Assembly: GCA_965199495.1 (NCBI GenBank)
Contig: CBDASK010000003.1
Span: 2,080,001 to 2,144,000, forward strand
From: Abditibacterium sp.
Lineage (GTDB): Bacteria > Armatimonadota > Abditibacteriia > Abditibacteriales > Abditibacteriaceae
Direction: 5' to 3'
Length of the DNA stretch: 64,000 nt
A program made the position numbers and the translations under genes. The notes under the pieces were generated by a model, which had not been told where the DNA came from, made no database searches, and worked only from the letters and a program-made list of their open reading frames with translations. Positions 82 to 60,700 of the stretch are shown one piece after another. The first letter of the stretch is position 1; every line of letters starts with the position of its first letter.

Positions 82-2379
82 ATGAATCCAAAGTATTCTC
101 CTTTTATTTTGTGTTTGGTCGCGCCGTGTGCCTGCGCCGCCCTCGCCCAAAACACCGTCCCCACCGCGTCCGCCCCGACTTCCTCCGATGCAGCCACGCC
201 GCCCGTATCTGTGCCGGGCAAAAAATATGCTTCTGCCACACCGCCCATTATTTTGCCAGCCAAACGGCTCGCGCAGGCTCCGGCTTCCGCGCCCGCCAGC
301 GACGGCGCTTCGGTCGCGGGCGATGGCACTGCCGCGCAAAACCCCGGCACGGCGCCGACCGATACTTCGGCGATGCCCGCCGATGCCACTCCCAAAACCG
401 ACGATTCGGAAATCGAAACGGTGATTTCAGTGGTGCGCGAGCGTTCCAATTCGTTGATTGGCAAAGCCAACGCGGCGTCCGAAGGCGTCGTCGGGCCGCG
501 CCAGTTGGAGCGCCGCCCGATTCTGCGTCCGGGCGAATTATTGGAAACCGTGCCGGGCGTGATTATCACGCAGCATTCGGGTTCGGGTAAGGCCAACCAG
601 TATTTCCTGCGCGGCTTCAACCTCGATCACGGAACCGATTTGGCGGTTTCGCTCAACGGCATTCCGATTAACCTGCCGACGCACGCGCACGGGCAGGGCT
701 ACACCGACCTCAACTTTCTGATTCCCGAACTGGTCTCGCAACTGCGCTATCGCAAAGGCTCCTACGAAGCCGATCAAGGCGATTTCTCGTCGGCTGGCTC
801 GATTGATTTGAGTTACGCGCGCCATTTGGGGCGCGACCAGAACGGCGTGCCGCAAACGCAATCATTGGAACTTGGCAGCTTCGGATTTGAGCGTTTACTG
901 CTCACCGGCAACGCCAACAAACAGGTGATTTACGGTTTGGAATTGCAGCATTCCGACAGTTCGTTTCAACTCAAAGAAGATTTTCGCAAGCTCAACGGCA
1001 TCGTCAGTTACGACCGGGGCGACGCCAAACGCGGCGTTTCGGCGACGGCTTACGCTTACGATGGCAAATGGAATTCGTCGGATCAGATTCCCCAGCGCGC
1101 CGTTGACGCCGGTCTCATCGGACGCTTTGGCAACATTGACCCGACCGACGGCGGCAAATCGCGGCGTCTGGCTTTGTCGGGCGAAGTGCGCCGCGACAAA
1201 ACCAATTTGACCGCCTACGCGATGAATTACAAGTTGAACTTGTTTTCCAACTTCACTTATTTTCTCGATAATCCGGTTCAGGGCGACCAGTTCGAGCAGG
1301 AAGATCGGCGCAATTATTACGGTTTTCATCTGCGCCAGCAAGTCGGCGAAAGCAGCGGCAAGTTCACCACGTTCGTCGGTTTACAGGGCCGCTACGACGA
1401 CATCGGTCGCGTCGGTTTGTTCCACAACCAAAACCGCGTGCGCTTCGAGACGGTGCGCCAGGATCGCGTCAAAGAAAGCTCGATTGCGCCTTATATTCAG
1501 GCCGAATATAAGTTCAATCCGCGATTGCGCGCCAGCGTCGGCGGGCGCTACGATTATTACCGTTTCGACGTGGATTCGAGCATCGCGGCCAACAGCGGCA
1601 AAGTCAACGACTCGCTATTTTCGCCCAAGGGTTCGCTGGCCTATCGCGTCGGCAAATACGACGAAACCTATTTTTCCATCGGGCGCGGTTTTCACTCCAA
1701 CGACGCGCGCGGCACGACGATCACGGTTGATCCCAACGATCCCAACGTGCCCGCCGACCGCGTGACGCCCCTTGTGCGCTCGAACTTCGCCGAAATCGGC
1801 GTGCGCCACGCGCGCGGTGGCTTGCAGTCTACGCTCGCACTTTTCGGATTGGATTCGGCGTCGGAATTAGTCTTCGTCGGCGACGCGGGCACGACCGAGC
1901 CGTCGCGTCCATCGCGGCGCGCGGGCATCGAGTTCACCAACTATTATAACGTCGGCAACGGCCTGATTTTGGACGCCGACTTCGCTTATGCGCGCGCCCG
2001 TTTTCGCGATTCCGACCCGGTCGGCAACCGCATTCCCGGCGCATTGGAAGGCATCATCGCGCTGGGCGCGACTTACGAACGCGAGCGCGGCATTACCGGC
2101 GCGCTCCGTCTGCGTTATTTCGGGCCGCGCCCGCTCATCGAAGACAACAGCCAGCGTTCGGATTCGTCGGCTCTGGTCAACGCCAGAGTTGGTTACAAAT
2201 GGAAGAAAGGTTTGCGATTGAACGTGGACGTTTACAATTTGTTCAACTCCGCCGTCAGCGATATTGACTATTATTACGCCTCGCGCTTGCCCGGCGAACC
2301 GGCGGCGGGCGTGGACGATACGCATTTTCATCCGTCGGAAAAACGCAGTTTGCGCGTCGGAATCGTGCGGCAATTTTAG
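82..2379 (+). CDS. TonB-dependent outer-membrane receptor with an Ala/Pro-rich N-terminal linker
   Basis: Signal peptide; plug motif 'LLETVPGV...HSGSGKANQYFLRGFNLDHGTD'; barrel end 'NVDVYNLFN' and C-terminal Phe. ATG at 82 preferred over the ORF-track start at 43. Confidence 0.92.
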   Translation: MNPKYSPFILCLVAPCACAALAQNTVPTASAPTSSDAATPPVSVPGKKYASATPPIILPAKRLAQAPASAPASDGASVAGDGTAAQNPGTAPTDTSAMPADATPKTDDSEIETVISVVRERSNSLIGKANAASEGVVGPRQLERRPILRPGELLETVPGVIITQHSGSGKANQYFLRGFNLDHGTDLAVSLNGIPINLPTHAHGQGYTDLNFLIPELVSQLRYRKGSYEADQGDFSSAGSIDLSYARHLGRDQNGVPQTQSLELGSFGFERLLLTGNANKQVIYGLELQHSDSSFQLKEDFRKLNGIVSYDRGDAKRGVSATAYAYDGKWNSSDQIPQRAVDAGLIGRFGNIDPTDGGKSRRLALSGEVRRDKTNLTAYAMNYKLNLFSNFTYFLDNPVQGDQFEQEDRRNYYGFHLRQQVGESSGKFTTFVGLQGRYDDIGRVGLFHNQNRVRFETVRQDRVKESSIAPYIQAEYKFNPRLRASVGGRYDYYRFDVDSSIAANSGKVNDSLFSPKGSLAYRVGKYDETYFSIGRGFHSNDARGTTITVDPNDPNVPADRVTPLVRSNFAEIGVRHARGGLQSTLALFGLDSASELVFVGDAGTTEPSRPSRRAGIEFTNYYNVGNGLILDADFAYARARFRDSDPVGNRIPGALEGIIALGATYERERGITGALRLRYFGPRPLIEDNSQRSDSSALVNARVGYKWKKGLRLNVDVYNLFNSAVSDIDYYYASRLPGEPAAGVDDTHFHPSEKRSLRVGIVRQF

Positions 2380-2391
2380 AACATAAAGCTC

Positions 2392-5478: not shown

Positions 5479-6168
5479 TTAATCGAACAACGTTTGCGCC
5501 GCTTTCACTGGGTCGGCGGCGCTGGTAATCGGGCGCCCAACGACCAGATAATTGGCGCCCGCTTTTAACGCTTCCGTTGGCGTCAGCACGCGCTTTTGAT
5601 CGCCCAATGCGGAATTAGCGGGCCGAATGCCCGGCGTGACGAGCATAAAATCGTCACCGCACGCCGCGCGCACCGGCAAGATTTCGCGCGCCGAACAAAC
5701 GACGCCATCCAAACCAGCTTCTTGCGCCAACATCGCCAGACGCGGCACGGCTTCGCGCGGCGTTTCGCTCAGACCAATTTTCGCCAGCGAATCGCTATCG
5801 TGTGAAGTCAAAATCGTGACGCCGATGACCTTCACATCGGGATTGGTTTCACGCGCGGCGTCGGCGGCGGCGCGCATCATTTCCAGTCCGCCCAGACAAT
5901 GCACGTTGAAAATATGCACGCCCAACCGCGCCGCCACGCGCGAGGCGGCGGCGACCGTGTTGGGAATATCGTGAAATTTCAAATCCAAAAACACGCGCTT
6001 TGGCCCGATTTCTTCGACGATTTGCGGGCCGCACGCGCAAAACAATTCCAAACCAATTTTTATCCCGCCGACGTGGCTGCTCAGTTGAGTGGCCAATTCG
6101 AGCGCCCGTTCGCGCGTCGGCACATCAAGCGCCACCAAAACCGATTGTTGAGGAGAATCCAAATTCAT
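5479..6168 (-). CDS. pyrF: Orotidine-5'-phosphate decarboxylase
   Basis: Motifs VALD, FLDLKFHDIPNTV, VTPGIRP, DQKR, VVGRPIT. Confidence 0.97.
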   Translation of the reverse strand: MNLDSPQQSVLVALDVPTRERALELATQLSSHVGGIKIGLELFCACGPQIVEEIGPKRVFLDLKFHDIPNTVAAASRVAARLGVHIFNVHCLGGLEMMRAAADAARETNPDVKVIGVTILTSHDSDSLAKIGLSETPREAVPRLAMLAQEAGLDGVVCSAREILPVRAACGDDFMLVTPGIRPANSALGDQKRVLTPTEALKAGANYLVVGRPITSAADPVKAAQTLFD

Positions 6169-6832: not shown

Positions 6833-7885
6833 TCAAAACCCGACGGCTGATGGATCGAATCCCATTTTACTCAACAATTCGCGAAAGCGTTCGGGTGGCA
6901 AAATGCCGCCCGACGCTTGATCATGGCCGTGACCGAAACTGCCATCGCCCTCGGATAATTCAAAACTCTTGAGAAAATCCAAAACGCTCAAACCTTTGGC
7001 CGAGCGCGCCGAGAAGTTCACTCGGTCTTTCATGTAGCCTTTGTTGGCGCAAATCACATGATATTTCGGCAAGCGCCCGCGCCAAATCTGCGCGATGAGC
7101 GGATGAATCTGGCAGGGCGAATCAATCGTAATCAGCGCGACTTGACCGGCGAATTTGGGTGCGGCTTTTTTGGCTTCGTTCATCTCGGCTTTGACTTCTT
7201 CGCGCGCGTTTTTCAAAGTTTGCACGTCGGGCGCGTCCGAATTGCACAAATCTTTGGGATTATCGAATTGCGTTAAAGCGCGCGCGGCGGCTTCGGGATC
7301 GAAATTCGACGCGCGACGCGGCGCGTTAATTAAGGCCGTGGCTTCTTTAAGCCACTTGGCGGTATATTTTTTCTTGGCCTCGTCAATGAGCAGCCACGGC
7401 GCCTTTTCGCCCAAATCCGACAGCGTGCCGATGACCGCAATCCAATCCATATCTTCGATTTCGACTTTGCCGCGCGCCAATTCATAAGTCATCCACGAAG
7501 TGTTGGGCACGCAGGGCCAACCGTAGCCGGTAATTAAAAAGTCTTCGTCTAAAACTCCTTCGGGACGGTGATGATCCAAAAACGCGGTCGGCACGCCGTC
7601 GAGAACTTTTTCGTCGCGACAACCCAAATCCAAAACCCACAAAAAATTGGGTTTCACAGCGGCGATGAGCGCGCGATTCGATTCCGTCCAAACGTTGCGC
7701 TCGCGATTGGTGGGTAGTCGTGCGACGCGGAAATTCAAACGCTCCAACACGCGTTGCCAAACCACGCCCGCCGTCACGCCATCGGCGTCCACATCGTGAA
7801 CGAGGCCAATAATTCCGTCACGCGGCATTTTTTCTAAAACGGCATCGAAAGTTTGGCGGGCGGAAGCGAATTCTTGGTCGAGCAT
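6833..7885 (-). CDS. DHH/DHHA1-family phosphoesterase (RecJ-like)
   Basis: Motifs HDVDADG, LDLG, LDHH, GTLSD, FSAR, GHGHDQASGG. Confidence 0.9.
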   Translation of the reverse strand: MLDQEFASARQTFDAVLEKMPRDGIIGLVHDVDADGVTAGVVWQRVLERLNFRVARLPTNRERNVWTESNRALIAAVKPNFLWVLDLGCRDEKVLDGVPTAFLDHHRPEGVLDEDFLITGYGWPCVPNTSWMTYELARGKVEIEDMDWIAVIGTLSDLGEKAPWLLIDEAKKKYTAKWLKEATALINAPRRASNFDPEAAARALTQFDNPKDLCNSDAPDVQTLKNAREEVKAEMNEAKKAAPKFAGQVALITIDSPCQIHPLIAQIWRGRLPKYHVICANKGYMKDRVNFSARSAKGLSVLDFLKSFELSEGDGSFGHGHDQASGGILPPERFRELLSKMGFDPSAVGF

Positions 7886-8007: not shown

Positions 8008-8688
8008 TTACGGTAGCGTCACGACTTGCAAATCGCGGATATTTGCGAACGGGCGCGGCGTGCGCGTGACGAGCGGGATTTCATGGGCAATCGCCGTGGC
8101 TGCGATCAGCGCATCGAGCGCGCTCAAGTCGGGGTCGCCGCTTTCGAGCATTAATTGGGCGGCGCGCGTCGAGGCCATCGGGCCGAGGCTCAAAACCGCG
8201 AACGGTTGCACGAACGCTTTGACGCGCGCGCGCTCGTTTTCGTCGGCGCAGTGTTCGAGCAAATATAAATAAGTCGCCGTCGCCAAACGCACTTCAACCG
8301 GCGGATTGCTCCAAAACGTTTGCGTCGGCGCCAGATTCATCGCCAGCGCCATCACCGCCGAAGTGTGAACCACGACCGGCGAACCGGCGGGCAAACTCGA
8401 AACTTCATCGGCGTTGGCGTTTTCATCGGCGCGCGCATCGTCGGCTTTTAATTCGGCCCACATTCCGCGAATCGCGTCGGGGCCGGGCTGGGCGTTGGAC
8501 GCGCCGACATCCAAAACGGCGTGGCCGCGTTCGGCTTCGCGCCACGTTTTGGCATCGGGGCGCGCGGGCGCCGCCATTTGCAGCGTGGCGCGCGGCGCGA
8601 GTTTTAAACCTAAAGCCTGCGCCAAACGTTCGCGCTCGGCGAGCGGCAATTTGACGGCGGCGGATACGGCATCTTCGTAAAGGGACAT
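8008..8688 (-). CDS. PIN (VapC-like) domain protein with an antitoxin-like N-terminal extension; catalytic residues degenerate
   Basis: C-terminal 'LSALDALIAATAIAHEIPLVTR..RPF'; N-terminal 'AVKLPLAERERLAQAL'; ATG at 8688. Confidence 0.8.
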   Translation of the reverse strand: MSLYEDAVSAAVKLPLAERERLAQALGLKLAPRATLQMAAPARPDAKTWREAERGHAVLDVGASNAQPGPDAIRGMWAELKADDARADENANADEVSSLPAGSPVVVHTSAVMALAMNLAPTQTFWSNPPVEVRLATATYLYLLEHCADENERARVKAFVQPFAVLSLGPMASTRAAQLMLESGDPDLSALDALIAATAIAHEIPLVTRTPRPFANIRDLQVVTLP

Positions 8689-8835
8689 GGGCGCGCCCTT
8701 GTCGCAAAAGCGGCGCCGTGGCTGCGGTTGCGCCCGTGAAAATGATAAAATCAAAGCGGCGTTTGCGCGCCGCAAATATGAAAACGATTTTCCGACTCCA
8801 TCTCTTTTAACGGCCTTGGCCGTAAGGAGATAACA

Positions 8836-9146: not shown

Positions 9147-9995
9147 ATGTTCCCATTGCCGTTCGTTGATTTTCCCGGCCCAATCTTGGCCGCGATTCTC
9201 TTTCTCTCGCTGCTTTACCTGCAAGCGCGCCGACCTTTGCGCGTTCAGCGATTTGGCGCGTGGACGCGCATTTTTCGCAACTTGGTTCTGGCTGCGCCCG
9301 CGCTGGTTTTACTACGTTTGATTCTCATTCCAATTCCTTATTTCGTCGCGATTTGGGCGCAGCATCACGGCGTGGGCATTTTGAACTGGTTGCATCTGCC
9401 GTTCTGGATAGCAGCCACGGTGGGCGCGTTGGGGTTCGATTACGCTTATTATTGGTGGCACGTCGGCACCCATCGCATTCCTTTGTTGTGGCGTTTTCAC
9501 AACGTGCATCACACCGATTTGGATATGGACGTTTCGACGGCGGCGCGCTTTCACTTTCTCGAAACCGCGATTTCCGTGGTTTATCGCGTCGCCGTCGTTT
9601 TGTTGATTGGCATCGCGCCGCTCGTTTATTTGTTCTACGAAATGGTTTTTGAACTCGCGACGCAATTTCATCATTCCAACTGGCGTTTGCCGCGCCGCGT
9701 CGAAGCGATTCTCAATCTGTTCATCGTCACGCCGCGCATGCACGGCATTCATCATTCAATTGTAAAAGGCGAAACCGATTCCAATTGGAGCACGGTTTTT
9801 TGTTGGTGGGACAGATTACATGGCTCGCATCGCATGGACATCGCGCAGGACGAAATAATTATCGGCGTTCCGGCTTATCGCGACGAACGCGAATTAACGC
9901 TGGGCGATTTATGGCGGATGCCATTTCGTCCGATTCGCGATTGGCGCTTGCCCGATGGCGAAGTGCCGACGCGCGAAAAATCCGCGCGAAATTAA
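9147..9995 (+). CDS. Sterol desaturase / fatty acid hydroxylase family protein
   Basis: His boxes YWWHVGTH, FHNVHH, FHHSN, HGIHH, plus TM helices. Confidence 0.92.
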   Translation: MFPLPFVDFPGPILAAILFLSLLYLQARRPLRVQRFGAWTRIFRNLVLAAPALVLLRLILIPIPYFVAIWAQHHGVGILNWLHLPFWIAATVGALGFDYAYYWWHVGTHRIPLLWRFHNVHHTDLDMDVSTAARFHFLETAISVVYRVAVVLLIGIAPLVYLFYEMVFELATQFHHSNWRLPRRVEAILNLFIVTPRMHGIHHSIVKGETDSNWSTVFCWWDRLHGSHRMDIAQDEIIIGVPAYRDERELTLGDLWRMPFRPIRDWRLPDGEVPTREKSARN

Positions 9996-10488: not shown

Positions 10489-12417
10489 TTATTTTGCGCG
10501 CGGCATCAGAAACGGAACGCCCGCGTCTGCAAAGGCGCGCGTGACAATGCGTGTGCCCGCCACGTTTTGCGTGCGTCGCAGCGCGCTCAGACGAAACGGC
10601 GATGGAACTTCGCCCAACGGAATACGCATTTCGATATTGGCAAACCCGGCGAACGTTTTGATTTTCGCCTCAAAATCCGACATTTGGGCCTCGAATCGCC
10701 CATCACGCGTCCATTTTTCGACGACAGTTTTGCCCTGAAGCGTCGCCACAAAGCGCCATTTTTCTGGCGTCTTGCCCACGTCAACCGGCGCGATTTCCGC
10801 CGCGACCCAATCGCCGTTTTGCGGCGATTGAACGCGAAACGCCAAAGTTAAAAATTTGTCGTCGCGTCGCGCCCACATTTTGGTCGCGGGCCACTCGCTT
10901 TCGATTGTTCCATCGCGCGTAAAATGAATAAATTTATCGGCGGCCCATTCGGTTAAATTGCCGTCCAACTCAACGGGCGCGCCGCGCGAAATTGAAAAAT
11001 CGGGCAACGCCGCTTTATCGCGCGGGAAAATCGGCAGTGCGCTCGCGCGTTTCAGTTCGTAATCTTCGATGGCATCGCGCAAAAGCATCAGACGAATCGA
11101 AGGCAATGGCCCGACGTGTCCGACAATTTCGCCGGGATAAAGCAAGGTGCCATCGCCGTTGGTCTCGCCAAACGATGGCAAAGTGTCCAGCGGTTTTGGC
11201 CCCCAGCCGTGCGCCATTGAATAGACGAAACTGCTAAATCCATATTTGCGCCAGAACGCGCCGTATGCGCGCACGCTTTGGCCGTCGTCGTCGAGCAGCC
11301 ACGTCGGGTAAGGGAACTTTGGCTCGAACATCGTGTAAAGCCAAGTTTCGTGGCCCGCAACGCGTTCTCGTTTGAGCGCGTCGAAATCCAAACCGCCGAT
11401 ACCAAAAAAATCGCCGATGTTGGGCGCCCAAATATCCACGCTATCTTTGAGCGATTGATTGGGATGCGCCGTCACCAAATGTTTAATACCCAACGCGCGT
11501 AGTCTCGCCGTGGCGGCACGCGCGGCGGCGTAGCGCGGTTCGTCAGTCGGTTCGTCTATCCAATAATAAATCGCTTTAGGCAGCGTTTTAGTCGCGCGCA
11601 ACTTTTCCAGCGCGATGTCGAATTCGGGCGTGTCCAGTGGCGGCACGCGCACGCTCAGGACGCGCGTATCCAACAGATATTTCTCGGCGAGCGGCGAACT
11701 CCAACTCACGGGCAAATCGTAGGCGTTGAGGCGATAATCGAGCAGAAATTCGTAATATTTGCGCTTCTGGATTTCCCATTCTTCGTCGGTAAAACTCTGG
11801 CCCAGATTTTTGCGATACCAATCGCGCAAAACGTCGTAATAAACCGCGACAGTCGCGCGAAACGTCGGCGCTGGCAAAGTCTGATCGTCCACGCGTAACG
11901 TCAGCGCCAGACGCCGGTTTTCGCCGTCGGCATTTACGTCTAATTCGCCGAAATAATCGCCCGCGACGGCATCTTGGGGCACGCGAATCGTCGCCCAGAA
12001 AACCGCGCTTTGCCCGGCTTCGATGCGCGCGGTTTTATCCAACGGCAACAACGCGTCGGGCCAATAGAGCGGGCGCAGTTCGCGGTTGCCGCTCGGTTTG
12101 GCGACGTAAACATAGTTTTCGCGCCAAATTTCCAACTGCTTCGATTCAATGAACTCGGCGCCGATTGTCGCCAAGCCGTTGGGCGTGATTTGCAAATTTT
12201 CGATGGGTTTTGCGCCCGCCGTCACCACAAATTGAAAGCTCTCCCACTCGCCGCGCGCCGCGCGCATGACGACGGGGTCGGCCCCAAACGGCAGCAAAAC
12301 GCCCGGTTTGGATGCGACCAATTTGCGCGTTGACGCAACCGGCGTTAGCGACCATTTCGCGGGCGCGGCGAGAACGGGCATGGCGAGCAAAAGCACAATG
12401 GCGAAAAGGCGGAGCAT
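10489..12417 (-). CDS. Secreted glycoside-hydrolase-like protein (DUF4091/GH123-like) with a C-terminal CBM9-like domain
   Basis: Motifs 'AARGEWESFQ', 'WPDAL', 'WIDEP', 'NGDGTLLYPG...PSIRLMLLRDAIEDYE'; C-terminal 'LDGNLTEW'. Confidence 0.75.
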   Translation of the reverse strand: MLRLFAIVLLLAMPVLAAPAKWSLTPVASTRKLVASKPGVLLPFGADPVVMRAARGEWESFQFVVTAGAKPIENLQITPNGLATIGAEFIESKQLEIWRENYVYVAKPSGNRELRPLYWPDALLPLDKTARIEAGQSAVFWATIRVPQDAVAGDYFGELDVNADGENRRLALTLRVDDQTLPAPTFRATVAVYYDVLRDWYRKNLGQSFTDEEWEIQKRKYYEFLLDYRLNAYDLPVSWSSPLAEKYLLDTRVLSVRVPPLDTPEFDIALEKLRATKTLPKAIYYWIDEPTDEPRYAAARAATARLRALGIKHLVTAHPNQSLKDSVDIWAPNIGDFFGIGGLDFDALKRERVAGHETWLYTMFEPKFPYPTWLLDDDGQSVRAYGAFWRKYGFSSFVYSMAHGWGPKPLDTLPSFGETNGDGTLLYPGEIVGHVGPLPSIRLMLLRDAIEDYELKRASALPIFPRDKAALPDFSISRGAPVELDGNLTEWAADKFIHFTRDGTIESEWPATKMWARRDDKFLTLAFRVQSPQNGDWVAAEIAPVDVGKTPEKWRFVATLQGKTVVEKWTRDGRFEAQMSDFEAKIKTFAGFANIEMRIPLGEVPSPFRLSALRRTQNVAGTRIVTRAFADAGVPFLMPRAK

Positions 12418-33775: not shown

Positions 33776-33779
33776 AAGA

Positions 33780-34913: not shown

Positions 34914-34938
34914 GGGGAAAGTGTAGCGATTGCGATCT

Positions 34939-35032: not shown

Positions 35033-35040
35033 GGAGTGCA

Positions 35041-37610: not shown

Positions 37611-37622
37611 GATGAAGCGATG

Positions 37623-37718: not shown

Positions 37719-37732
37719 AACTAATCTAAAAA

Positions 37733-38638: not shown

Positions 38639-38643
38639 ATCTT

Positions 38644-38752: not shown

Positions 38753-38756
38753 CCGA

Positions 38757-46753: not shown

Positions 46754-48286
46754 ATGATGAACTGTTGTATTTCGTGGCGTCGCGCTCTGTTGCTTTGCTG
46801 TTTGACTGGTCTGGGCGCCGCTTCTTTGTCGAGTTGCGGCGGCGGTGGCTCCAACCTGCCGACGCCCGCTCCATCGAATCCCGATGCGCAGACGCAAAGC
46901 ATCGCGCGCTGGCAACCAGTGATTTCCGCCGACGCCGGACAAACCGAGGCGCCGCCGGTTGCGGGCGGCGCCATCGCCAACGCCGAAATCGCGCAACTGT
47001 TGGCGCTGCAAAGCGCGCGCACTCCAGCGCAAATCGCGATTTTCAATAAATGGAACAATCGCGCCGCTTCGCAATGGAACGAAATCGCGCGCGATCTGGT
47101 CATCGCAAACGGCACGACGCCGCCGATTTCCTCGCGCGTTTACGCCGCGCTCAGCGTCGCGCAATATGACGCGACCATCGCCGCCGCGCGCGCGCAAATC
47201 ACTTTTAATCGCGCCGCGCCCGCCCAAGTGGATGTGCGCATCCAACCGCTTTCCCCAATTCGCGATGGTTATCCCTCGCGCACATGGGCACTGTGTCGCG
47301 CCAGCGCCGACGTTTTGAAGTCGCTTTATCCGGGCGATAAAGCGCAACTCGAAAGCGCCGAATCCGAATGCGAAACTTCGCGATTGGTCGGCGGCGTCAA
47401 TTTTCCCTCGGATATCGAAGCGGGCAATCAGGTCGGCGCCGCCGTGGCTGCTAAAGTCATCGCGCGTTTGGCGAACGATGGCGCCGACAAAGCCGCGCAA
47501 ACTTTGCCACAACCCAGCGGCCCCGGATATTGGACGGGTAAAGGCGGTTTGTTGCCTTCTTGGAAGTTCGTCAAGCCGTGGCTGACAACCGACATCAGCC
47601 AGTTTCGCGCGCCCGCGCCGCCCGCGTTTGGTTCGCCGCAGTTCAATCAAGATTTGGCCGAGGTGCGCCAAATCTCGGACAATCGCACGCCGGAGCAGTC
47701 CGCAATCGCCGATTTCTGGGCCGACGCCGCGCAAACCTTCACGCCGCCGGGACATTGGAACTTATTTGCAGATCGGATCATCGCCAGCCACAATTTGAGC
47801 GACGCGCAGGCCGCGCGCGTTTACGCGTTGCTGAACATGGCCGAGCAGGATTCGGGGATTTCGTGCTGGAACAGCAAATTTACCTATTGGGTCATTCGCC
47901 CGTCGCAAGCCGACCCGCAAATCACGACGCCAGTCGGTTTGCCCGATTTCCCATCGTATACGTCGGGCCACTCGAACTTTTCGGGCGCGGGCGCGTGGGT
48001 TTTGGGCGCGCTGTTTCCCGACGAAAAACCAATCGTTGACGCTCTGGCGCAAGAAGCCTCAGTTTCGCGCATCTACGGCGGCATTCATTATCGCTTCGAC
48101 GCCGACGGCGGCATCAATAACGGCCACGCCGTCGCCGACCTCGCTGTTGCGCGCTCGCAAAGCGACGGCTACACCGATGGCGTCCCAACGGGCCGCACGT
48201 TGTCGTTCGAGGAATTGAAAAATGACACCAACGCCGAATTAAACCGGCGCGCGCCGGGCACGCGTAAATCGGCGAACTGGGATTGA
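46754..48286 (+). CDS. PAP2 / vanadium-haloperoxidase family lipoprotein with a duplicated domain
   Basis: Lipobox LSSC; C-domain K...RP, YTSGHS, SRIYGGIHY; degenerate N-domain YPSRT, SRLVGGVNFPSD. Confidence 0.85.
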   Translation: MMNCCISWRRALLLCCLTGLGAASLSSCGGGGSNLPTPAPSNPDAQTQSIARWQPVISADAGQTEAPPVAGGAIANAEIAQLLALQSARTPAQIAIFNKWNNRAASQWNEIARDLVIANGTTPPISSRVYAALSVAQYDATIAAARAQITFNRAAPAQVDVRIQPLSPIRDGYPSRTWALCRASADVLKSLYPGDKAQLESAESECETSRLVGGVNFPSDIEAGNQVGAAVAAKVIARLANDGADKAAQTLPQPSGPGYWTGKGGLLPSWKFVKPWLTTDISQFRAPAPPAFGSPQFNQDLAEVRQISDNRTPEQSAIADFWADAAQTFTPPGHWNLFADRIIASHNLSDAQAARVYALLNMAEQDSGISCWNSKFTYWVIRPSQADPQITTPVGLPDFPSYTSGHSNFSGAGAWVLGALFPDEKPIVDALAQEASVSRIYGGIHYRFDADGGINNGHAVADLAVARSQSDGYTDGVPTGRTLSFEELKNDTNAELNRRAPGTRKSANWD

Positions 48287-48381: not shown

Positions 48382-50145
48382 ATGGCCAAAAATCGCAATC
48401 GCCGCGACGATTCCTTTGAAGATTCCGGCGCCAATCCTTTCCAAAATTTCCCCGAAACGCAACTCGATGCGCCGGGACTTTTAGACGAAATTCTCAATTC
48501 GGGCCGCGTTGACGATTCGCGCACTTACAACACGTTGTTGCTGCTGCGCCATCAACTCGAAACCGACAAAAAACAACTCGAAGAAGCCGCCGAAGTTATC
48601 GGTCAATACGAGGAGGCTTATAACAAACTCACCCAGCCCGCCAATCGCATCGGCGTTTATCTGGGCAAACCGCCCGAAGAACGCGTCAAACGCAAAGTCG
48701 AACCCGAAAAACCCGACGAATTGGCGCTCATCGCCGTCGGCGATCAGGAATTCGTGGTGCAGGTTGACCCGAACATTGACGAACCCAAATTCGACATCGG
48801 CACGCGCGTCAAAGTCAACGAGGGTTACGCCGTCGTCGGCGATATGGGGCCAGCCGAAAACGGGCCAATCGCCAAAATTTCCGAAGTCATGGACGACGGG
48901 CGACTGCGCGTCTCGTCCGATCCGCAGGGAATGCAGGGCCGCATCGTCTATCGCGGCGAGAAGATTTTGGGCACCGAACTCAAAGTCGGCGACGAAGTGC
49001 GCATGGAGCCGTTTTTCAAAGTCGCGCTCGAACTTTTCGTCGGCAATGAAACGCGCGATTATTTTCTGGAAGAAGTGCCCGAACTGCCGTGGGAGAAAAT
49101 CGGCGGCCAGGAAGAAGCGATTCAATTGATCCGCGATACCATCGAGATGCCGCTTTTGTATCCCGAATTGTTCGAGCGTTTCGGCAAAAAACCGATCAAG
49201 GGCATTTTGCTGTTCGGCCCGCCCGGATGCGGCAAAACTTTGATTGGCAAGGCGACGGCTTACAACCTGACGCGCGCTTTCAACGAGCGCACGGGACAGG
49301 ATTTGAAAGAATATTTCATGCTCATCAACGGGCCGCAAATTTTGAATATGTGGCTGGGCGAAAGCGAGCGCCAAGTGCGCGAGATTTTCCAGACCGCGCG
49401 CGAAAAAGCCAAAGAAGGCCACTTGGTTTTCATCTTCATTGACGAAGCCGAATCGTTGCTCCGCACGCGTTCTTCGGGGAGAATGGGCAACATCAACAAC
49501 ACTTTGGTGCCGCAGTTCGCCGCCGAAATGGACGGCTTGGTTTCGATGGAAAACGTCGTGGTGATGCTGACATCGAACCGGCCCGACTACATCGACCCGG
49601 CGATTTTGCGTCCCTCGCGTATTGATCGCAAAGTCAAGATTCGGCGACCCGACAAAGCGGCGTCGCGCGACATCTTCGAGATTTATTTGCGCGAAGATTT
49701 GCCCTACGATCCGGCGCTACTCAAGAGCCACGGCGGCGACGTGGCTGCATCGCGCGCACAGTTGGCAAACATGGCGACCGATTACACGTTTCGTCGCACG
49801 CCGGAAACCGAGTTTTTGGAGGTCTACACGCGCGCGGGCGGCGTCGAGACTTTGCACTACAAAGATTTAGTTTCGGGCGCTCTCATCGAGAGCATCGTCG
49901 AGCGCGCCAAGGATTTCGTTATCAAACGTTCGATTGACGTGAAATCGAGTCAGGAAGGTTTGGGCGAAGACGACTTGAAAAAAGCGATTGACGCCGAGTT
50001 CAAGGAAAACGAGATTTTCCCCAAGACCGACAATATCGAGGATTGGATGAAGTTGCTCGATTACGATCAGGAAAATGTGGTGACGCTCAAGCCGATTCGT
50101 CCGGGTTCGCGTGACCGCGAACGCAGTGTGCGCGGCGTGATTTAG
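48382..50145 (+). CDS. arc: ARC/Mpa-type proteasome-associated AAA+ ATPase
   Basis: N-terminal coiled coil plus OB region; 'LEEVP...IGG', GPPGCGKT, FIDEAE, SNRPDYIDPAILRP, 'VSGALIESIVERAK'. Confidence 0.88.
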   Translation: MAKNRNRRDDSFEDSGANPFQNFPETQLDAPGLLDEILNSGRVDDSRTYNTLLLLRHQLETDKKQLEEAAEVIGQYEEAYNKLTQPANRIGVYLGKPPEERVKRKVEPEKPDELALIAVGDQEFVVQVDPNIDEPKFDIGTRVKVNEGYAVVGDMGPAENGPIAKISEVMDDGRLRVSSDPQGMQGRIVYRGEKILGTELKVGDEVRMEPFFKVALELFVGNETRDYFLEEVPELPWEKIGGQEEAIQLIRDTIEMPLLYPELFERFGKKPIKGILLFGPPGCGKTLIGKATAYNLTRAFNERTGQDLKEYFMLINGPQILNMWLGESERQVREIFQTAREKAKEGHLVFIFIDEAESLLRTRSSGRMGNINNTLVPQFAAEMDGLVSMENVVVMLTSNRPDYIDPAILRPSRIDRKVKIRRPDKAASRDIFEIYLREDLPYDPALLKSHGGDVAASRAQLANMATDYTFRRTPETEFLEVYTRAGGVETLHYKDLVSGALIESIVERAKDFVIKRSIDVKSSQEGLGEDDLKKAIDAEFKENEIFPKTDNIEDWMKLLDYDQENVVTLKPIRPGSRDRERSVRGVI

Positions 50146-50164
50146 TTGCCGGTTCGGTTAAAAT

Positions 50165-50198
50165 AAAACGGCGCGTTCCTGCGGGAGCGCGCCGTTTT
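50165..50198 (+). terminator. Terminator-like hairpin after arc
   Basis: AAAACGGCGCGTTCC-TGCG-GGAGCGCGCCGTTTT. Confidence 0.7.
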
Positions 50199-50201
50199 GC
50201 T

Positions 50202-51485
50202 ATGCCCGCCAATTTTCCAACACAAATCAGCGCCGACGGGCGTTTCTTGCAAACCGCCGACGGCACGCCGTTTTTCTGGCTCGCCGATACCGCATGGGAA
50301 CTGTTTCACCGTTTGTCGCGCGAAGAGGCCGATTTTTATCTGCAAACGCGCGCCCGCCAGGGCTACACCGTGATTCAAGCCGTCGTTTTGGCCGAGTTCG
50401 ACGGTTTGCACGAGCCCAATTTTTATGGCGATTTGCCGTTGCAGGGCGACGATCCGACCAAGCCCATCGAAGCGTATTTCGCTCATGTGGATTGGGTCGT
50501 GAAGCGCGCCAACGCGCTGGGCCTGACCATCGGGATGTTGCCGACTTGGGGCGACAAATGGAACAAAAAGTGGGGCGTTGGGCCAGAAATTTTTACGCCC
50601 GAAAACGCGCGGATTTACGGAAATTGGTTGGGTAATCGTTACCAAAACGCGGCGATTGTGTGGATTTTAGGAGGCGACCGGCCCATCGAAAACGAAACGC
50701 ACCGCGCCATTGTGGAAAGCATGGCGGCGGGCGTGGCTGCAAGCTCGAAGCACCTGAAAACGTTGCATCCCAACGGCGGCCAAACTTCGGCGCAATGGTT
50801 TCACGACGCGCCGTGGCTCGATTTCAACATGATGCAAACTGGGCATGGGCGCAACTCGGCTAATTACCAAAAAATCGCCGAAGATTACGCGCGCACTCCC
50901 GTCAAGCCGGTCATTGATGGCGAGCCGGGCTACGAAGATCATCCCGCCGGATTTCAGATAGAAAACGGTTATTTGGACGATTATGACAACCGCAAAAGTT
51001 TGTATTGGGCGCTGTTGTCGGGCACGGCGGGCCACACCTACGGTTGCCACGCCGTCTGGCAGATGCTGAGTCCGAAGCATCCGGCGATTAATCATCCGCG
51101 TTTGCCGTGGCGACAATCGCTGGAACTGGCGGGCGCACGGCAAATGCACCTGGCAAGGCAAATTTTGGCGCCGAGCTGGGGCCATCTCGTGCCCGATCAA
51201 TCTTTGATTATCGAGCAGCCACGCCAGGACGGGCAAGCCTTGGATTACGCGCACCTCGCCGCCGCGCGCGAGGCCAACGGCGCACGCGTCTGGATTTACT
51301 GTCCGCTCGATTGGGCCTTTGAAGTGGACACTTCCAATTTGCCCGACGCGCATCTGCGCGCCCATTGGATCGACCCGCGAACCGGCGAAGCTATGCCCGG
51401 CGAAGAGTTCGCGCGCGGCGCGCGGCGTAAGTTTCAGGCGCCGGGCTGGGGGCCGGATTGGATTTTAAGTTTGCAAGCCGTCTGA
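50202..51485 (+). CDS. GH140/DUF4038 apiosidase-like glycoside hydrolase with a C-terminal beta domain
   Basis: Motifs DGTPFFWLADTAW, WILGGD, FNMMQTGH, KPVIDGEPGYE, GHTYG, WIDPRTG. Confidence 0.88.
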   Translation: MPANFPTQISADGRFLQTADGTPFFWLADTAWELFHRLSREEADFYLQTRARQGYTVIQAVVLAEFDGLHEPNFYGDLPLQGDDPTKPIEAYFAHVDWVVKRANALGLTIGMLPTWGDKWNKKWGVGPEIFTPENARIYGNWLGNRYQNAAIVWILGGDRPIENETHRAIVESMAAGVAASSKHLKTLHPNGGQTSAQWFHDAPWLDFNMMQTGHGRNSANYQKIAEDYARTPVKPVIDGEPGYEDHPAGFQIENGYLDDYDNRKSLYWALLSGTAGHTYGCHAVWQMLSPKHPAINHPRLPWRQSLELAGARQMHLARQILAPSWGHLVPDQSLIIEQPRQDGQALDYAHLAAAREANGARVWIYCPLDWAFEVDTSNLPDAHLRAHWIDPRTGEAMPGEEFARGARRKFQAPGWGPDWILSLQAV

Positions 51486-52740: not shown

Positions 52741-53874
52741 TTAACTTAAAGCCGCGTATTCCGGTAACGCGCCGCCCAAAAGTGGGCGCGCCCAATCCAA
52801 AAATTCGTCCGAGACATTGGTTTCGCCCGCGATGAATTCGTCGGGGAAAACGCGCGGGAACTCTTCGACTTGATCGAGTTGAAGCGTCTGCTCGATGACT
52901 TTGTAACCGCGTTCGCCGCGCGCTTCGCCTTCGCGGCCAATTGCCACGACGTAACCGCTCAAATCGTCGTCGGCCAAGCGCACGATGAGTTGGCCCAGAT
53001 TATAGGCTTCCTCGGCGTCGCCGCGCGCGATGTTGGCGCCCGAAACGCTGGTCGTCAGGCCCAAGCGGTCGTATCTGGCGGGCAAATTCAATCTTGTCGA
53101 AAGTTGTTCGGTCAGGCTGGCGGCGTCCAAAGCATTGCCGTTTTTGTCGCGCGCGGCGTCGGTCGTCACGACGACGACATAGCCGTGTTTCTGGTGCGCG
53201 CGGCGCATTTCCTCGACCAATTCATCCAGATCAACCTGCCGTTCGGGCAGCAAAATCGCGTGGGGCGCCGAGTTGAACTCGTCGCGCGCCAGCGCCGTGG
53301 CTGCTGCCAGCCAACCGGCTCCGGCGCCGCCAAATTCCAACACCACAATCGGTTCTTCGCCGCCCATCGCGCCGCGCCCGGCGTCGCGCGCCAGCAGCGC
53401 CGCCGCGCGCGCCGCGCTGCCATAGCCGGGGCAATGATCGCCCGCCGCAACTTCGTTTTCGGGCGAAACCGGCACGCACAAAACGCTCAATTCGTAACCG
53501 GCGGTTTTCGCGGCTTTGACGGCGAATTTGGCGCCTTCGATGGCGGGCAAACCGCCGATGAAAATCAGTGTGCCGATCTCGCGTTTGGTCAACGCTTCGA
53601 TGAGTTTGGGGCCATCTTCGTCGGTCATGGCGCGTGTGCGCCCACCCAAGATCGAGCCGGGCGTGCGCCGCAACGCCTCGACGGTTTTATGCTTTTGCAT
53701 GCCCAAATCAATGATGCGGTCGTCCAAAACGCCGGGCAAACCAGCGATGGCGCCCCACACTTCCAACAAATCGGCGCCTTCGCCGACCTGATCTAAAACG
53801 CCCGCGATGACGCCGTTGGTGATCGCCGTTGGCGCGCCCGCCGCTACAATTAATCCGTTTTCGCCTCTTGCCAT
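52741..53874 (-). CDS. Phosphofructokinase-family (PPi-PFK-like) protein with degenerate catalytic motifs
   Basis: PFK fold motifs in order (GAPTAITN, TPGSILG, FIGG, DHCPGYGSAA, AGWLAAA, APHAILLPE, DAEEAY.LG, FLDWARPL); ATG at 53874. Confidence 0.85.
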   Translation of the reverse strand: MARGENGLIVAAGAPTAITNGVIAGVLDQVGEGADLLEVWGAIAGLPGVLDDRIIDLGMQKHKTVEALRRTPGSILGGRTRAMTDEDGPKLIEALTKREIGTLIFIGGLPAIEGAKFAVKAAKTAGYELSVLCVPVSPENEVAAGDHCPGYGSAARAAALLARDAGRGAMGGEEPIVVLEFGGAGAGWLAAATALARDEFNSAPHAILLPERQVDLDELVEEMRRAHQKHGYVVVVTTDAARDKNGNALDAASLTEQLSTRLNLPARYDRLGLTTSVSGANIARGDAEEAYNLGQLIVRLADDDLSGYVVAIGREGEARGERGYKVIEQTLQLDQVEEFPRVFPDEFIAGETNVSDEFLDWARPLLGGALPEYAALS

Positions 53875-54737: not shown

Positions 54738-57700
54738 ATGAAATCCCTCTTTCGATTCGCCGCTCTGGCGACGCTGCTCCTGTTTTTCTGCGCTGTTTCG
54801 GCGCGCGCACAAAACGCTATGAAACCTAATTTGCGCCAACAGGCCGATGCCGCGTTTAACGAGAAATCGTATGCGCGCGCCGTCGAGCTTTACCGTCAAG
54901 TCAAAGCCGCCGGGCCGTCGCTCGACGAAGCGATTGTCAATTATAATATCGCGGTCTCGCTTTTCAAAATGGAAAAGTGGGACGACGCGATTAAAGCGGC
55001 CAATTACACCCTCGAAAACTCCGATTGGAAGGCGCGCGTTTTGTATTTGCTGGGCCAAATTTACGTCAAAGTTCCGCATCAGGGCTACGAAGTGAACGGC
55101 CAAATTTATCGCGGCGACGAATATCCCGTCGTCGCGGGCGCCGAAAAACCGGAATTGAAATATATCGCGAACGAAGACCAGAAACAGGCGCTCGATTATT
55201 TCGAGAGCGCCAAAGTCGCCGCGCAAAAAGAGCGTTATAACGCCGAACATAATAAATATTTCGCGCCGATTTACCCGATGGCCGCGCGCGAAGAGATCGA
55301 TTTGAATTTCGATCTCGCGGCTTATTTGCCAATTGCCAGTTTCGACGAGTTCATTAAACAGATGGACGCCGACCCGCAACTCAAAGGCGGCGCAATTGAC
55401 CCGCAGCAAAATTACGATGTCGAATGGATTTTGCCGCGTAAAGTTCTGACGCTTTACGCCGAAATCCGCGCGTTAGATAACGCCGATAAAAAGCCCGATG
55501 CCGCGCCTTCGTTTTACGCGCAAGGTTTGTTCGAGCGCGCTTATCGCCAGCGCATGGACGGTTGGGCGCGCAAATACGACGAGAAAACCCAAACCACCAT
55601 CACGCGGCCCTATCCGTATAACGACCGCACCGCCGTGGCTTCGTGGCGCGCCCTCGTGACGCAATTTCCCGATTCGAGTCTGGCTCCGCAATGTCTGATT
55701 CTCATCTCGCAAACGCAGCAGCAAGATAGCGACCTGATAGCAGCCACGGCGACGCTGCGCGAACTGATCCAGAAATATCCCAAAACGAAATGGGTTTCCG
55801 ATGCGCGCGCGACTATCGCGCAAATCGAGAAACACGAGGTTTCGTTTGGCATTTCGGAAGCCACGCGGCCCGGCGTGCAGCCGAAATTGAGCGTCAGCGC
55901 GCGCAACGTCAAGACAGTTAATTTCGCGGCTTATAAAGTGAAGTTGGAAGATACTCTGGCGGCGCCGGGCAACCTGAAAAACGCCGATACGCAATTCACC
56001 GAGTTTTCCGAGAATTTCGGCACTATCGCGGCGGCGACCAAAAAATTCGGCCAACCGGTCGCGACGTGGAAATTCGACACGCAGACCAAATCGGATTACC
56101 AACCCACGAACGGCGAAACCCGCGTTCCGGTCGAGAAAATCGGCGCGTATGCGGTTGTCGCCGAAGCGGGCGGCGTGCGGTTCGCTCAAATCGTGGTGAT
56201 TACCGATTTGACGTTGCTCAAGAAAGTGGATAAAAACGGCAGTTTCGTGTTCGTCGCTAACGACAAAACGGGCGAAGCCGTGAACGGCGTCAATGTCATT
56301 TTGAAAGAAACCTGGGATTACAATCCGCGCCTGACCGAATTTGCTCAGGGCCAGTCGAACGATGGCGGATTTTTCGACAAAACACGCAGCTCCAAGGCAG
56401 ATGATAATCGTCAGGTCGAGGCGTTCGCGTGGAGCGGCGACCGTTATGCGCTGACCGGCGCGCAGGGCAACTATTTTGGATACAACGGTGACGGCGAAGA
56501 TCAACGCGCGTTGGGCACGACCGACCGGCCCGTTTATCGGCCCGGCCAGAAAGTCAATTTTCGCCAGATTTTGACGGCGCGCAAAGGCGGCGATTGGAAT
56601 CCACTTGTGGGCGCCACGATTCGCGTGACGGCCACAAATCCCAAAGGCGAAGAGATTTATCGCAAAGATTTCACGTCGAGCGAATTTGGAACTGTTAATG
56701 GCGACTTCCAATTGCCCACCGAAACGCCATTGGGCGTTTACAATGTCAGCGCAATTCTGATTAAAGCCGATAAATCCGAAGACGGTCTGGGCGGCACGCA
56801 ATTTCGCGTTGAAGAATATAAACGGCCCGAATTTGAAGTCACGGTTTCGGCGCCGACCGAAGCCAAACGGCCCGGCGAAGTTGTGGCGGCGCGCATCAAC
56901 GCGAAGTATTATTTCGGCGCGCCCGTTCCCAATGCCAAGGTGAAATATACGGTTCGCAAAGCCAGCTGGTATGCGGGTTATCATTTCCCGTCGCCCTACG
57001 ATTGGCTGTATGCGAGTTGGGGCGTCGGCGATTACGATACCGGACGCCGCAACATCGGTGGCGAAGGTTCGGGCAAGATTATCAAAGAAGGCGAAGTGAC
57101 GACCGACGACAAAGGGTTCGCCGAATTGAGTTTTAAAACCGATGAAATCGAGCCGATTGACGATAACAATTGGTGGGCGCGCTATTCCAATCCGCTTTAT
57201 ACGATTGAAGCCGAAGTGACGGATGCTTCGCGGCGCACGATTGAGGCGCAAGGGCAAGTCAAAGTCGCGCGCCAGCAGTATTTCGCTTTTTTGAATACCG
57301 ACAACGGCTATTTCCAGCAGGGCGACCGCGTGCCAGTTGAACTGCGCACGCAGGACGCCAACGAACAGCCGGTGGCTGCATCGGGCAAGATGGTGGTTTA
57401 CCGTCTGTTGCCGGGCGATAAAGAAGAAAAAGTCTTCGAGCAAGCGATTTCGACCAACGCGCAGGGTTACGCCAAATGGATTTGGGAAGCCAAAGATTCG
57501 GGGCAATTTCGCGTCGAATATCAGGCGACTGACGAGTGGAATCAGGAAGTCAAAGCGTCGCAGGAAATCTGGGTTGTCGGCGACCAAATCGGCGCGGTTC
57601 GCTTGCGCGGCGTGACGATTTTATTGGACAAAGAATCGTATGCCGAAGGCGACACGCTCAAGGCGCGATTGGTGGCTGACAAGCCGGGCGCGACGGTTTT

Positions 57701-60700
57701 GCTGACGCAGGAAGTCGGCGACGAAATTCTGCGGCGCGACGTTTACAAAATTGACGGACAATCGCGCGAAGTTTCGATTCCGATTGACAAATCGAAGGTG
57801 CCGAACTTCTTTTTGTCGGCGGCGTTGGTGCAAGATTATGAGGTTTATCAGGCGCAAACCGAAGTGTTCGTGCCGCCGGTTCGCCAGTTGCTGAACATTA
57901 GTGTGAAAGGCGACAAAGCGGTTTACAAGCCGGGTGAAACCGGAACTTTTGAAGTGACCGCGCTCGATTACGCCGGAAAACCGGCGCGCGCCGAAGTGAG
58001 TCTGGCGCTGATTGACGCGAGTTTGTTTTACATTCAAAAGAGCTTCACGCCCGACGTGCGCGGGTTTTATTACGGCGACCGTCGCAGCGATCAAGTCGGT
58101 CTGGATTCGAGCCGCAGCGGCAACCCGCAGGCGCGGCGCGAAGACGATAACAAATCGCCGAATTACGAAACGCACGGCTTGGAATTGCCCGACGATTTCG
58201 GCCAATTGCAATTGACGCCGGGGCAATTTGGTTACTATTACGGCGGCGGATTTGGCGGGCGCGGCGATATGGAGTTTGCGTCGGCTGTCAATAGAATGCC
58301 GATGAATGCGCCAATGGCAGTTAAGGCGGCGCCCGCACCTCCGGGCGCACCGCGAGCCGCTATGCGAATGAAAGCCGCGAACGAACCCGTGTCCGATGCA
58401 GCCACGCCGTCCGCGCCGCCGGTTGAAGTGCGCTCGAATTTCGCCGAAACCGCATATTGGTCGCCCGCGATTGTCACCGATGGCGGCAAAGCGACGGTGA
58501 AAGTGACTTTCCCCGATTCGCTGACGCAGTGGCACGCTTCGGCTTTGGGTTTGACCAAAACCGTTCAAGTCGGCGAGGCGGAAAGCGATGTCGCGACCAA
58601 AAAAGATTTGCTGGTGCGTTTGCAGGCGCCGCGCTTTTTCGTCGAACGCGACGAAGTGACGATTTCGGCCAACGTGCATAATTACACCGACAAACCACAA
58701 AACGTGACGGTGAATTTAACTTCGCAAGGCGCGACGCAAAGTTTGGACGTAGCTATGGTCAAGCGCGCGCCGCTCGTCATCCAGGCGGGCGAAGAAGCGC
58801 GCGTGGATTGGCCCGTCAAAGTCGTGCGTTCGGGCGAAGCACAAATTCAAGTTACCGCGCAGACAGCCACGGCGTCCGATGGTGTGAAGATGAGTTTTCC
58901 GGTTCTGGTTCATGGCGTGCAGCGCTTCGATGGCAAAGCCGGAGAAATCAAGGGCGACGGCACGACGAAAATCGCGCTCAATTTCCCCCAAGAACGGCAA
59001 TTGGGCGCCAGCCGTTTGAACGTGCAACTCAATCCGAGCTTGGCCGGACAGATGCTCGAAGCGTTGCCGTATTTGGCCGATTATCCTTACGGTTGTGTCG
59101 AGCAAACCATGTCGCGCTTTTTGCCGACCGTCATCGTGCAAAAGACGTTGCGACAAAGCGGCGTTGACCTCGAAACGCTGCGCAAACGCGCGCAGGCTTA
59201 CGACGCGCAAGCCAAAGACGAGCCGGTGAGCGAGCGCATCAAAAACAGCGGTTATTCTTATCCGCAAGGCCAGCCCAACGCGCGCGATTTGAACGAAATG
59301 TCGTCGCAGTTGGGTTATCACGCGCGCTCGAACAATCCGATTTACGACGCCAAAACCGTTGACAAAATGACGCAGGAAGGTTTGCAGCGTTTGGGTTCGA
59401 TGCAACGTAGCGACGGCGGTTGGGGTTGGTGGCCGGGTTCGGAAAACAGCGACGAATATATGTCGGCGTATGTGATGTATGGTTTGTATCAGGCGCGCCG
59501 CGCCGACGTGGCTGTGAAGTCGGACGTCATCAATCGCGGGCGCGATTATCTGGTCAAGCAGATGAAAGATGAAGATAATCTGAATCTGCTGACTTACATC
59601 GCTTATGCGTTGACGCAAGACGCCAATTATAAGTTAGTTGGTCGGCGGCGCGTCATTGCCGATTGGGAAAAAGTCGTGACGGGACGTTTGTTCGAGCAAC
59701 GCGAACGTTTGGCGCCGCTTTCCAAAGCGTATCTGGCGATGACATTGGACAATTTGGGCGACAAAACCAAAGCCAATGTCGTGGTGCGCAATCTCGAAAA
59801 TACCGCCGTGATTGACGCGGCTAACGGCACGGCGCGCTACAAAACGCAACCAGCGTATTGGTATTGGTGGAACAACGATGTCGAAACCGTCGCGTTGGCT
59901 TTGCGCGCGTTCGATCAAATCGAGCCGACTAACAAACTGGCGCCGATGTTGATGAAATGGCTGACGTTGCAAGCGCGCGGCAATCATTATCGCTCGACCA
60001 AAGAAACCGCCGAAGTCGTTTACACGCTCGCCGATTATGTCGTCAAGAACAAGGAATTGGACGTGGATTACACGGTTAAAGTCAATCTCAACGGCAAATT
60101 GGCGCGCACTTATCGCGTCACCAAAGAGAACGCGCTGTGGTTCGATAATCGGTTTATTACCGGGGACGTGTTTTTGCAAGACGGCGAAAATACGTTGACG
60201 ATCGAGAAAGTTGGCAAAGGCAAATTGTATTGGAACGCTTACACCGAATACTTCTCGCTCGAAGAGCCGATCAAAGCGAGCGGCAACGAACTCGAAATTT
60301 CGCGGCGTTTCTTCAAATTGACGCGCAAAGCCGAAACAAAAATCAATCCGATTGTGGAACTCAATCAAATCCCGATAGTTCCGGGACAAAAATTGTTCCG
60401 TAGCAAAATTATCGCGCCAGTTCCGCAGGAAAGTTCCGAACAAGAATACACGCGGACGGAAATCAAGGATGGCGAAACCGTGACGAGCGGCGATTTGATC
60501 GAGGTTGAACTCGTCGTCAACGCCAAAAACGATTACGAATATCTGGTTTTCGAGGACATGAAAGCCGCCGGATTCGAGCCGGTTGATTTGCGTTCGGGCG
60601 CGAGTTACGGCGACGGATTAAGCTCGAACGTCGAACTGCGCGACGAGAAAGTCGCGTTCTTCGTGGATAGATTGCCCCAGGGGCGCCGCGTGTTGCGCTA

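Follow-up and report, generated by a model that had tools for sequence, protein, structure and literature searches.

Experiments have established sequence-selective uptake tags in two families. The subject here is a nine-base word, CGTGGCTGC, in Abditibacterium sp. (Armatimonadota; Abditibacteriaceae), met in a 64,000-nucleotide stretch of assembly GCA_965199495.1 (contig CBDASK010000003.1, positions 2,080,001 to 2,144,000 of the forward strand; hereafter the window), located some 54 kb away from dnaA on the 4.72-Mb main contig. The source genome (G000) is 4.81 Mb in size and 95% complete; labels such as G003-G026 denote relatives in the family and phylum set. The Pasteurellaceae uptake signal sequence (USS) and the Neisseriaceae DNA uptake sequence (DUS) are described as non-palindromic 9-12-mers found about once per 1-3 kb, unpolarised, depleted in acquired DNA, present as inverted pairs at gene ends and split into dialects (PMC2397512, PMC7811141, PMC2817400, PMC12616744). 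The highly iterated palindrome HIP1 (GCGATCGC) of cyanobacteria is hyper-abundant, conserved, located in coding DNA and tied to transformation (PMC4390886, PMC5861425, PMC13756078, bioRxiv 2024.09.10.611283), and the NTS/Ssn system of Neisseria reads DNA strand-specifically to modulate transformation, NTS being a clustered hairpin repeat (PMC11893778).

The Abditibacterium word shares with USS and DUS its non-palindromic form, its presence on both strands without polarity, an origin by point changes in genes, a tripeptide skew, clade dialects, scarcity in acquired DNA and the occurrence of inverted pairs at the ends of genes; with USS it also shares same-strand avoidance, and on all sequence criteria checked it appears to behave like USS. 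It differs from both in phylum and sequence, in giving no ComP match (in a search where no positive control responded), in its stronger strand-specific spacing, in its palindromic sister dialects and in a density that is higher in coding than in intergenic DNA (407 vs 195 per Mb), the reverse of USS and DUS. We consider it somewhat better than an even chance that the word is a chromosome-wide, clade-specific, per-strand tag of the uptake-sequence kind, spread by transformation drive as DNA of kin is taken up and recombined.

Exact copies of CGTGGCTGC number 25 in the window (13 plus-strand, 12 minus-strand), against a mean of 0.88 and a maximum of 6 in 100 dinucleotide shuffles. The initial annotation had estimated about one expected copy and listed 24 observed ones; each listed copy is an exact match, one further copy (51215, minus strand) having been overlooked. 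With that copy added, 21 of the 25 are followed by A or T; the 12-mer CGTGGCTGCATC was again counted six times, and all 13 one-mismatch copies reported earlier were found. The whole genome carries 1,783 copies against an order-4 Markov expectation of 129.5, and the signal is not confined to the window but extends over the entire chromosome, with candidate machinery genes outside the window. The nine-mer first described is indeed enriched and asymmetric, but the true word exceeds nine bases and is graded, reading CG[CGA]CGTGGCTGC[TA] in flank profiles, with an asymmetric six-base core (GTGGCT / AGCCAC), graded flanks, CGCCGTGGCTGCT as the usual form and nothing common to the copies beyond about 13 bases. 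In the window the core GTGGCT occurs 77 times over both strands, and CG[ACG]CGTGGCT 34 times against 38 expected at chromosome density.

Gene calls made for this analysis on G000 (3,817 genes, 82% coding) place 1,599 copies (90%) in coding and 171 in intergenic DNA. The coding copies compare with 83-111 (mean 96) across 10 synonymous shuffles and 216-258 (mean 245) across 5 dicodon simulations. Frame by frame, observed and shuffled counts are 670/30, 556/15, 155/22, 126/20, 58/4 and 34/5, so that all six frames are raised, the initial annotation having named at least four in which the word is read; relative to genes, 830 copies are sense and 769 antisense, with no sense-strand polarity. The excess over both codon nulls, the six raised frames and the two orientations together indicate that selection or drive acts on the DNA, as the initial annotation had proposed for selection; the word also uses rare codons. 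The tripeptides VAA, AAT and AVA hold ranks 2-4 among those over-represented in G000, and a comparable skew is described for uptake sequences (PMC2817400). The over-representation is strong, genome-wide and independent of codon use. Biased use of codons or dinucleotides, or the decay of a mobile repeat such as NTS or a repetitive extragenic palindrome (REP), is extremely improbable as its source: three quarters of the coding copies do fall in two frames (Val-Ala-Ala and Ala-Ala-Thr), but the coding total stands six- to seventeen-fold above the codon nulls.

The copies are also spaced strand by strand. In G000 adjacent copies tend to alternate strand (1,062 alternating vs 717 same-strand); same-strand pairs reach 0.06-0.28 of expectation at 60-500 bp and about 0.45 at 500-750 bp, returning to 1 by 1.5 kb, and opposite-strand pairs remain near 1 over those distances. 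The two control words with enough copies showed no same-strand avoidance. After removal of inverted pairs, the range of 40-500 bp contains 26 same-strand pairs for 131.1 expected (0.20) and 146 opposite-strand pairs for 141.1 expected (1.03; p 7e-20). The pattern recurs in 500 kb sampled from G004 (same-strand 16/33.1, opposite 37/34.2, p 0.004) although just 34 of its 187 coding sites are common with G000. Used as a read-out, avoidance ranks GTGGCT first in depletion among all 4,096 hexamers around strong sites on the same strand (384 vs 698) and also counts GGTGGCT (63 vs 154); substitutions within GTGGCT remove it (pooled 300 vs 324), indicating a sharp six-base core. Avoidance showed no 5'/3' asymmetry, and nothing indicated that the loss of a site is made good by a new one close by on its strand (27 vs 29 of 82). 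In simulations, one copy saturating one strand of about 1.2 kb yields the observed pattern, whereas duplex saturation depletes both orientations and mismatches the data. Each strand saturates separately, over a distance of about 1 kb, and copies on opposite strands are independent.

A Pasteurellaceae-type USS control, consisting of 596 kb of dereplicated metagenome loci (L376-L451) with 317 single sites after removal of 73 pairs, gave 20 same-strand pairs for 39.6 expected (0.51) and 39 opposite-strand pairs for 39.8 (0.98) at 40-500 bp (p 0.01), and the first 100 of 499 forward Chi sites of Escherichia coli showed no same-strand avoidance (8 vs 8.5). Since USS shows a weaker form of the same pattern and Chi none, the spacing resembles that of USS, not Chi; same-strand avoidance as a feature separating the word from uptake sequences was dropped once inverted pairs were removed and USS added. 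The literature found on uptake-sequence spacing does not, in the parts available, state per-strand avoidance for USS, which may already be in print.

The orientation dependence also recalls Chi itself (GCTGGTGG in E. coli, read by RecBCD), which is likewise asymmetric, GT-rich and scarce on foreign DNA. In a Chi-like scheme of two-ended break repair, a helicase-nuclease other than RecBCD or AddAB would halt resection at the oriented word and load RecA; both strands would have to carry regularly spaced copies of their own, and replichores would show no bias. A gene for a 1,421-residue PD-(D/E)xK nuclease and SF1 helicase (G000:C3:4111365-4115630) would fit, being found in 5 of 27 family genomes, among them G000, G004, G011 and G017, the four with non-palindromic words. 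Its copy in G011 is interrupted, however, 80 kb of the fifth carrier (G016) contained no motif, and the gene was not found in the palindrome-bearing G020, G022 and G014. RecBCD and AddAB were not found in the 95% complete G000: there is one UvrD-family helicase, RecC is in 0 of 5 genomes searched, and no AddAB-like pair was seen. Chi is polarised, whereas the word is unpolarised and far more enriched, and with Chi lacking the avoidance, we regard this scheme as quite unlikely.

GC skew is weak in G000, but GGGCAGGG, which we take to be the FtsK-orienting polar sequence (KOPS), lies on the leading strand in 205 of 225 cases (91%) and switches at the dnaA/rpmH/dnaN locus. Against replichores so defined, the leading-strand share of CGTGGCTGC is 953/1,780 (53.5%, a slight excess, p 0.003) and that of the 10-mer 1,392/2,799 (49.7%); the word is without replichore polarity, unlike KOPS in the same chromosome. 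The plasmid contig has no copy of the 10-mer against 14.6 expected and the phage-like contig 2 against 38.3; three island-like regions have 1 vs 19.9, 20 vs 80.1 and 14 vs 40.3, which are non-independent tests since the regions were chosen from the largest motif gaps. This core-versus-accessory contrast marks the word as a sign of long-resident chromosomal DNA, selected or driven, and the thousands of in-gene copies, the per-strand spacing and the scarcity on plasmid and phage DNA together make a tag of self DNA likely. The absence of inverted pairs noted at first holds for the window but not for the genome, in which 86 inverted pairs of the 8-mer lie within 40 bp, 17 of them intergenic and several 8-55 bp behind stop codons; by position these are terminator-like.

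The same counts bear on a directional site for a chromosome-maintenance protein, either a sequence-specific re-priming primase or a nucleoid organiser. Spacing of about 1 kb per strand would be on the scale of Okazaki fragments, but a replication priming site should favour one strand per replichore, as the word does not, and RepB'-type and Prim-Pol primases were found in 0 of 5 genomes, the RepB' search having had no responding control. An organiser that binds the duplex should impose equal spacing on the two orientations, so that the chromosome-organising protein offered in the initial annotation is weakened by the strand-specific spacing; with 10 of 13 congeners lacking the word, such a site is very unlikely.

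Among relatives, CGVCGTGGCT is counted 2,801 times in G000, 2,548 in G011 and 912 in G004 (reversed controls 94, 93 and 115). A scan of 301 genomes of the phylum found it enriched in these three, the next-highest ratios being about 5 at fewer than 30 per Mb, and in a quick tree the three form a single RpoB clade, 96-97% identical and about 80% identical to other congeners. Core sites are conserved with G011 in 20 of 27 cases (hexamer mean 43%, rank 3 of 227 hexamers), with G004 in 17 of 93, with G009 in 4 of 89 and with G006 in 0 of 49. Non-shared sites align in register, with amino-acid change of 0.29 vs 0.18 in the background; sites arise in register through substitution, that is, by point changes in genes.

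Origin by substitution and the lack of shared flanks also speak against a decayed repeat, for which the repeat-like extended form in inverted pairs in G004 could be cited. That form, GTAGGACGTGGCTGGTGTC-like, occurs 184 times per 500 kb, compared with 10 times in the whole main contig of G000, and often lies between genes as inverted pairs with a separation of about 31 bp; it constitutes a family of repeats that incorporates the tag (loci L147-L151, L336-L355). Unlike REP/RAYT and NTS/Ssn repeats, the word is mostly inside genes and does not flank nuclease genes: in G000, four RAYT-like genes and one Ssn-like gene have other repeats on their flanks, the RAYT-like genes having REP families of their own. 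RAYT/Y1 genes were rejected as reader, being present in 22 of 27 genomes but not found in the motif-bearing G017, G014 and G026, and having different flanks. Abditibacteriaceae do possess Ssn-like genes, which are small GIY-YIG genes, and the word would share with NTS a strand-specific reading, but these genes adjoin GTCATT-type hairpins, not the word, and were likewise rejected; at the Ssn-like gene at G000:C3:3607888 such hairpins flank the gene, and G000 carries 119 copies of a related repeat. Codon nulls, control words and the core-substitution read-out refute the by-product and repeat origin.

The check for conservation in relatives yields a clade-specific word with other dialects in the family, surveyed in samples of 17-300 kb. 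TCGAGTACTCGA is the dialect of G020 and appears in the rpoB loci of G024 and G026; CGAGTACTCG is the word of G022, TGCAAGTACTTGCA of G014, CAAAGTACTTTG of G018, and RAGTACGGTCGA of G017, where it forms mostly inverted pairs outside long open reading frames. No word was found in the samples of G012, G009, G006, G023, G025, G013, G016, G015, G007 and G003. Of 251 phylum genomes, 5 show enrichment of RAGTACKS, and these belong to a single genus of Abditibacteriaceae; the AGTACT-centred dialects of relatives are palindromic. A common origin of AGCCAC and RAGTAC from an ancestral AG..AC site is speculative. GTAC is avoided in G000 (0.10 of expectation). Avoidance is extreme across the family: CTAG stands at 0.01-0.6 and GTAC, in several genomes, at 0.00-0.10, and six-base palindromes, CTCGAG, TTCGAA and CTGCAG among them, are affected too. 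The GAGTACTC-dense contigs G005:C98 and G001:C179 belong to genomes that otherwise avoid GTAC and may be misbinned or recently acquired DNA of the other genus; bin assignments could be checked by dialect. Literature searches on the word, on Abditibacterium and on Armatimonadota with transformation gave no description, the matches listed for the word being unrelated by title.

HIP1 and the alternate HIPs of cyanobacteria resemble the word in being hyper-abundant, conserved and located in coding DNA, and the AGTACT dialects are HIP-like palindromes. A drive of that kind acting inside the cell is unlikely, though it deserves weight: the word, possibly methylated on one strand, would set which heteroduplex strand is kept over about 1 kb, and new copies would convert their alleles; further bias would come from a copy on the opposite strand but not from another on the same one. 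It would predict the same strand-specific spacing and agrees with the sharp core, whose inner substitutions abolish avoidance, and MutS and MutL genes are present, as recognised by motif. The G000 word is asymmetric, however, and its spacing signal is 1 kb per strand, whereas HIP1 periodicity was reported at 10-90 kb; terminator-like pairs and the USS parallel would better suit uptake tags. No cognate methylase was found, two candidates having been rejected: neither candidate searched in relatives follows the word, and five other large G000 methylases lie outside that search. An MmeI-like methylase is in 3 of 13 genus genomes, not in G004 or G011; a conserved orphan methylase, carried by 21 of 27 genomes irrespective of whether they have a motif, is absent from G004 and tracks no dialect. 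The latter (G000:C3:1807692-1808500; 62-88% identity over the 21 genomes, with varying neighbours) is closest to M.RsrI (E 5e-32) and therefore likely reads GAATTC. As for C5 methylases, G000 has one gene with unrelated neighbours and one in a prophage-like region.

To return to uptake, the machinery expected for competence is present: ComEC in 27 of 27 family genomes, ComEA and DprA in G000, and secretins in 5 of 5 genomes searched. Prepilins of the AFTLIELLVV type abound in G000, which agrees loosely with its placement in Abditibacteriaceae, and an operon there reads from its sequence as pilB-pilT-pilC-pilD, then four minor pilins and, in tandem, a pair of PilX-like proteins (1,290-1,330 residues). 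Motif-free congeners share the operon but have one PilX-like gene at the locus; the tandem duplicate and a long stem mark G000, G004 and G011 (stem 0.65 vs 0.34 in the sister clade), the same comparison giving ratios of 0.7-0.9 for six other genes. The PilX-like (ComZ-like) tip protein of 1,330 residues is a weak candidate for the reader. An alignment of ComEC revealed nothing specific to motif-bearing genomes; its beta-lactamase-like domain (G000:C3:3065496-3068075) has lost the metal-binding residues in G000, G004, G009 and G012 and kept them in G006 and other genera.

With these parts, a component of the type IV pilus would bind the asymmetric word in released DNA, and the orientation of the word would set which strand passes ComEC and is integrated by DprA and RecA as a piece of about 1 kb. 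DNA gaining a new copy would out-recombine DNA without one, a molecular drive; a second same-strand copy on the same piece would add nothing, while an opposite-strand copy would open a second route.

Several observations weigh against uptake as the explanation. Relatives in whose samples no motif appears have the competence genes just as well, so that the machinery does not discriminate, and the ComP_DUS family (PF16732) was found in 0 of 5 genomes in a search with no positive control responding, which leaves the suggested ComP-like pilin without a match. A second pilin is likewise long-stemmed (ratio 1.5), and several PilX-like paralogues occur in other family genomes with and without motifs. 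The PilX-like model has a predicted local distance difference test score (pLDDT) of 64; it matches ComZ end to end at Z 6.2 with a root-mean-square deviation of 3.8 over 154 residues, at rank 36, and the protein has no sequence relative in the PDB and no Foldseek match. Avoidance is stronger in G000 than in USS (Fisher p 0.004); a Neisseria DUS control of 377 kb of prophage loci showed no strand difference at low power (same 14/18.7, opposite 14/17.4); and USS recognition is modelled as double-stranded DNA binding (PMC7811141), which alone does not predict strand-specific spacing. A reader at the level of recombination or repair fits the spacing equally well, palindromic dialects look more HIP1-like than DUS-like, and 21 repair, replication and competence genes show no enrichment (22 vs 25.2 expected). 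The new uptake-sequence dialect proposed in the initial annotation accordingly gains from the codon nulls, the genome-wide and unpolarised distribution, the accessory depletion, the dialects and the competence genes, and loses by the missing ComP match and the non-discriminating machinery.

Within the window, seven plus-strand copies lie inside genes: in queA (18245..18253), a curA-like reductase gene (28850..28858), a proteasome-ATPase-like gene (49740..49748) and further genes at 8095..8103, 25390..25398, 47443..47451 and 50732..50740. Others on that strand are antisense in pyrF (6072..6080), ureG (23614..23622), urtD (36497..36505), urtA (39951..39959) and a phosphofructokinase-family gene (53296..53304), and one is outside the called gene (8717..8725). 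On the minus strand, copies lie inside the urease alpha gene ureC (32690..32698), in a 2,000-codon gene that holds two (55740..55748 and 58398..58406) and in genes at 7390..7398, 9411..9419, 11295..11303, 13780..13788, 24532..24540, 27487..27495 and 43213..43221; those at 190..198 and 51215..51223, the latter being the added one, are sequence matches. The urease and urea-transport cluster (29846-40151) and the proteasome-ATPase-like gene with its neighbour (48382-51485) are resident genes of normal motif density. Elsewhere in G000, a CRISPR array of about 131 repeats occupies G000:C3:2766486-2775009.

A broader proposal, which we hold tentatively and at clearly less than an even chance, is that Abditibacteriaceae would be a third family with sequence-selective uptake, with at least six dialects switching between palindromic (AGTACT-centred) and asymmetric (AGCCAC) forms and a giant ComZ-like tip pilin as reader, and that all such tags, USS included, would be counted per strand, orientation picking the transforming strand. 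Uptake words may accumulate by drive or by selection, and the family offers a natural series of asymmetric, palindromic and motif-free relatives, useful for locating the reader and for tying DUS and USS to HIP1. An asymmetric word reveals what palindromes hide, namely per-strand saturation over about 1 kb, and a USS control sharing the pattern leads to a direct test of the coupling between orientation and strand choice in transformation. A working tag would also aid the genetic tractability of this little-studied lineage.

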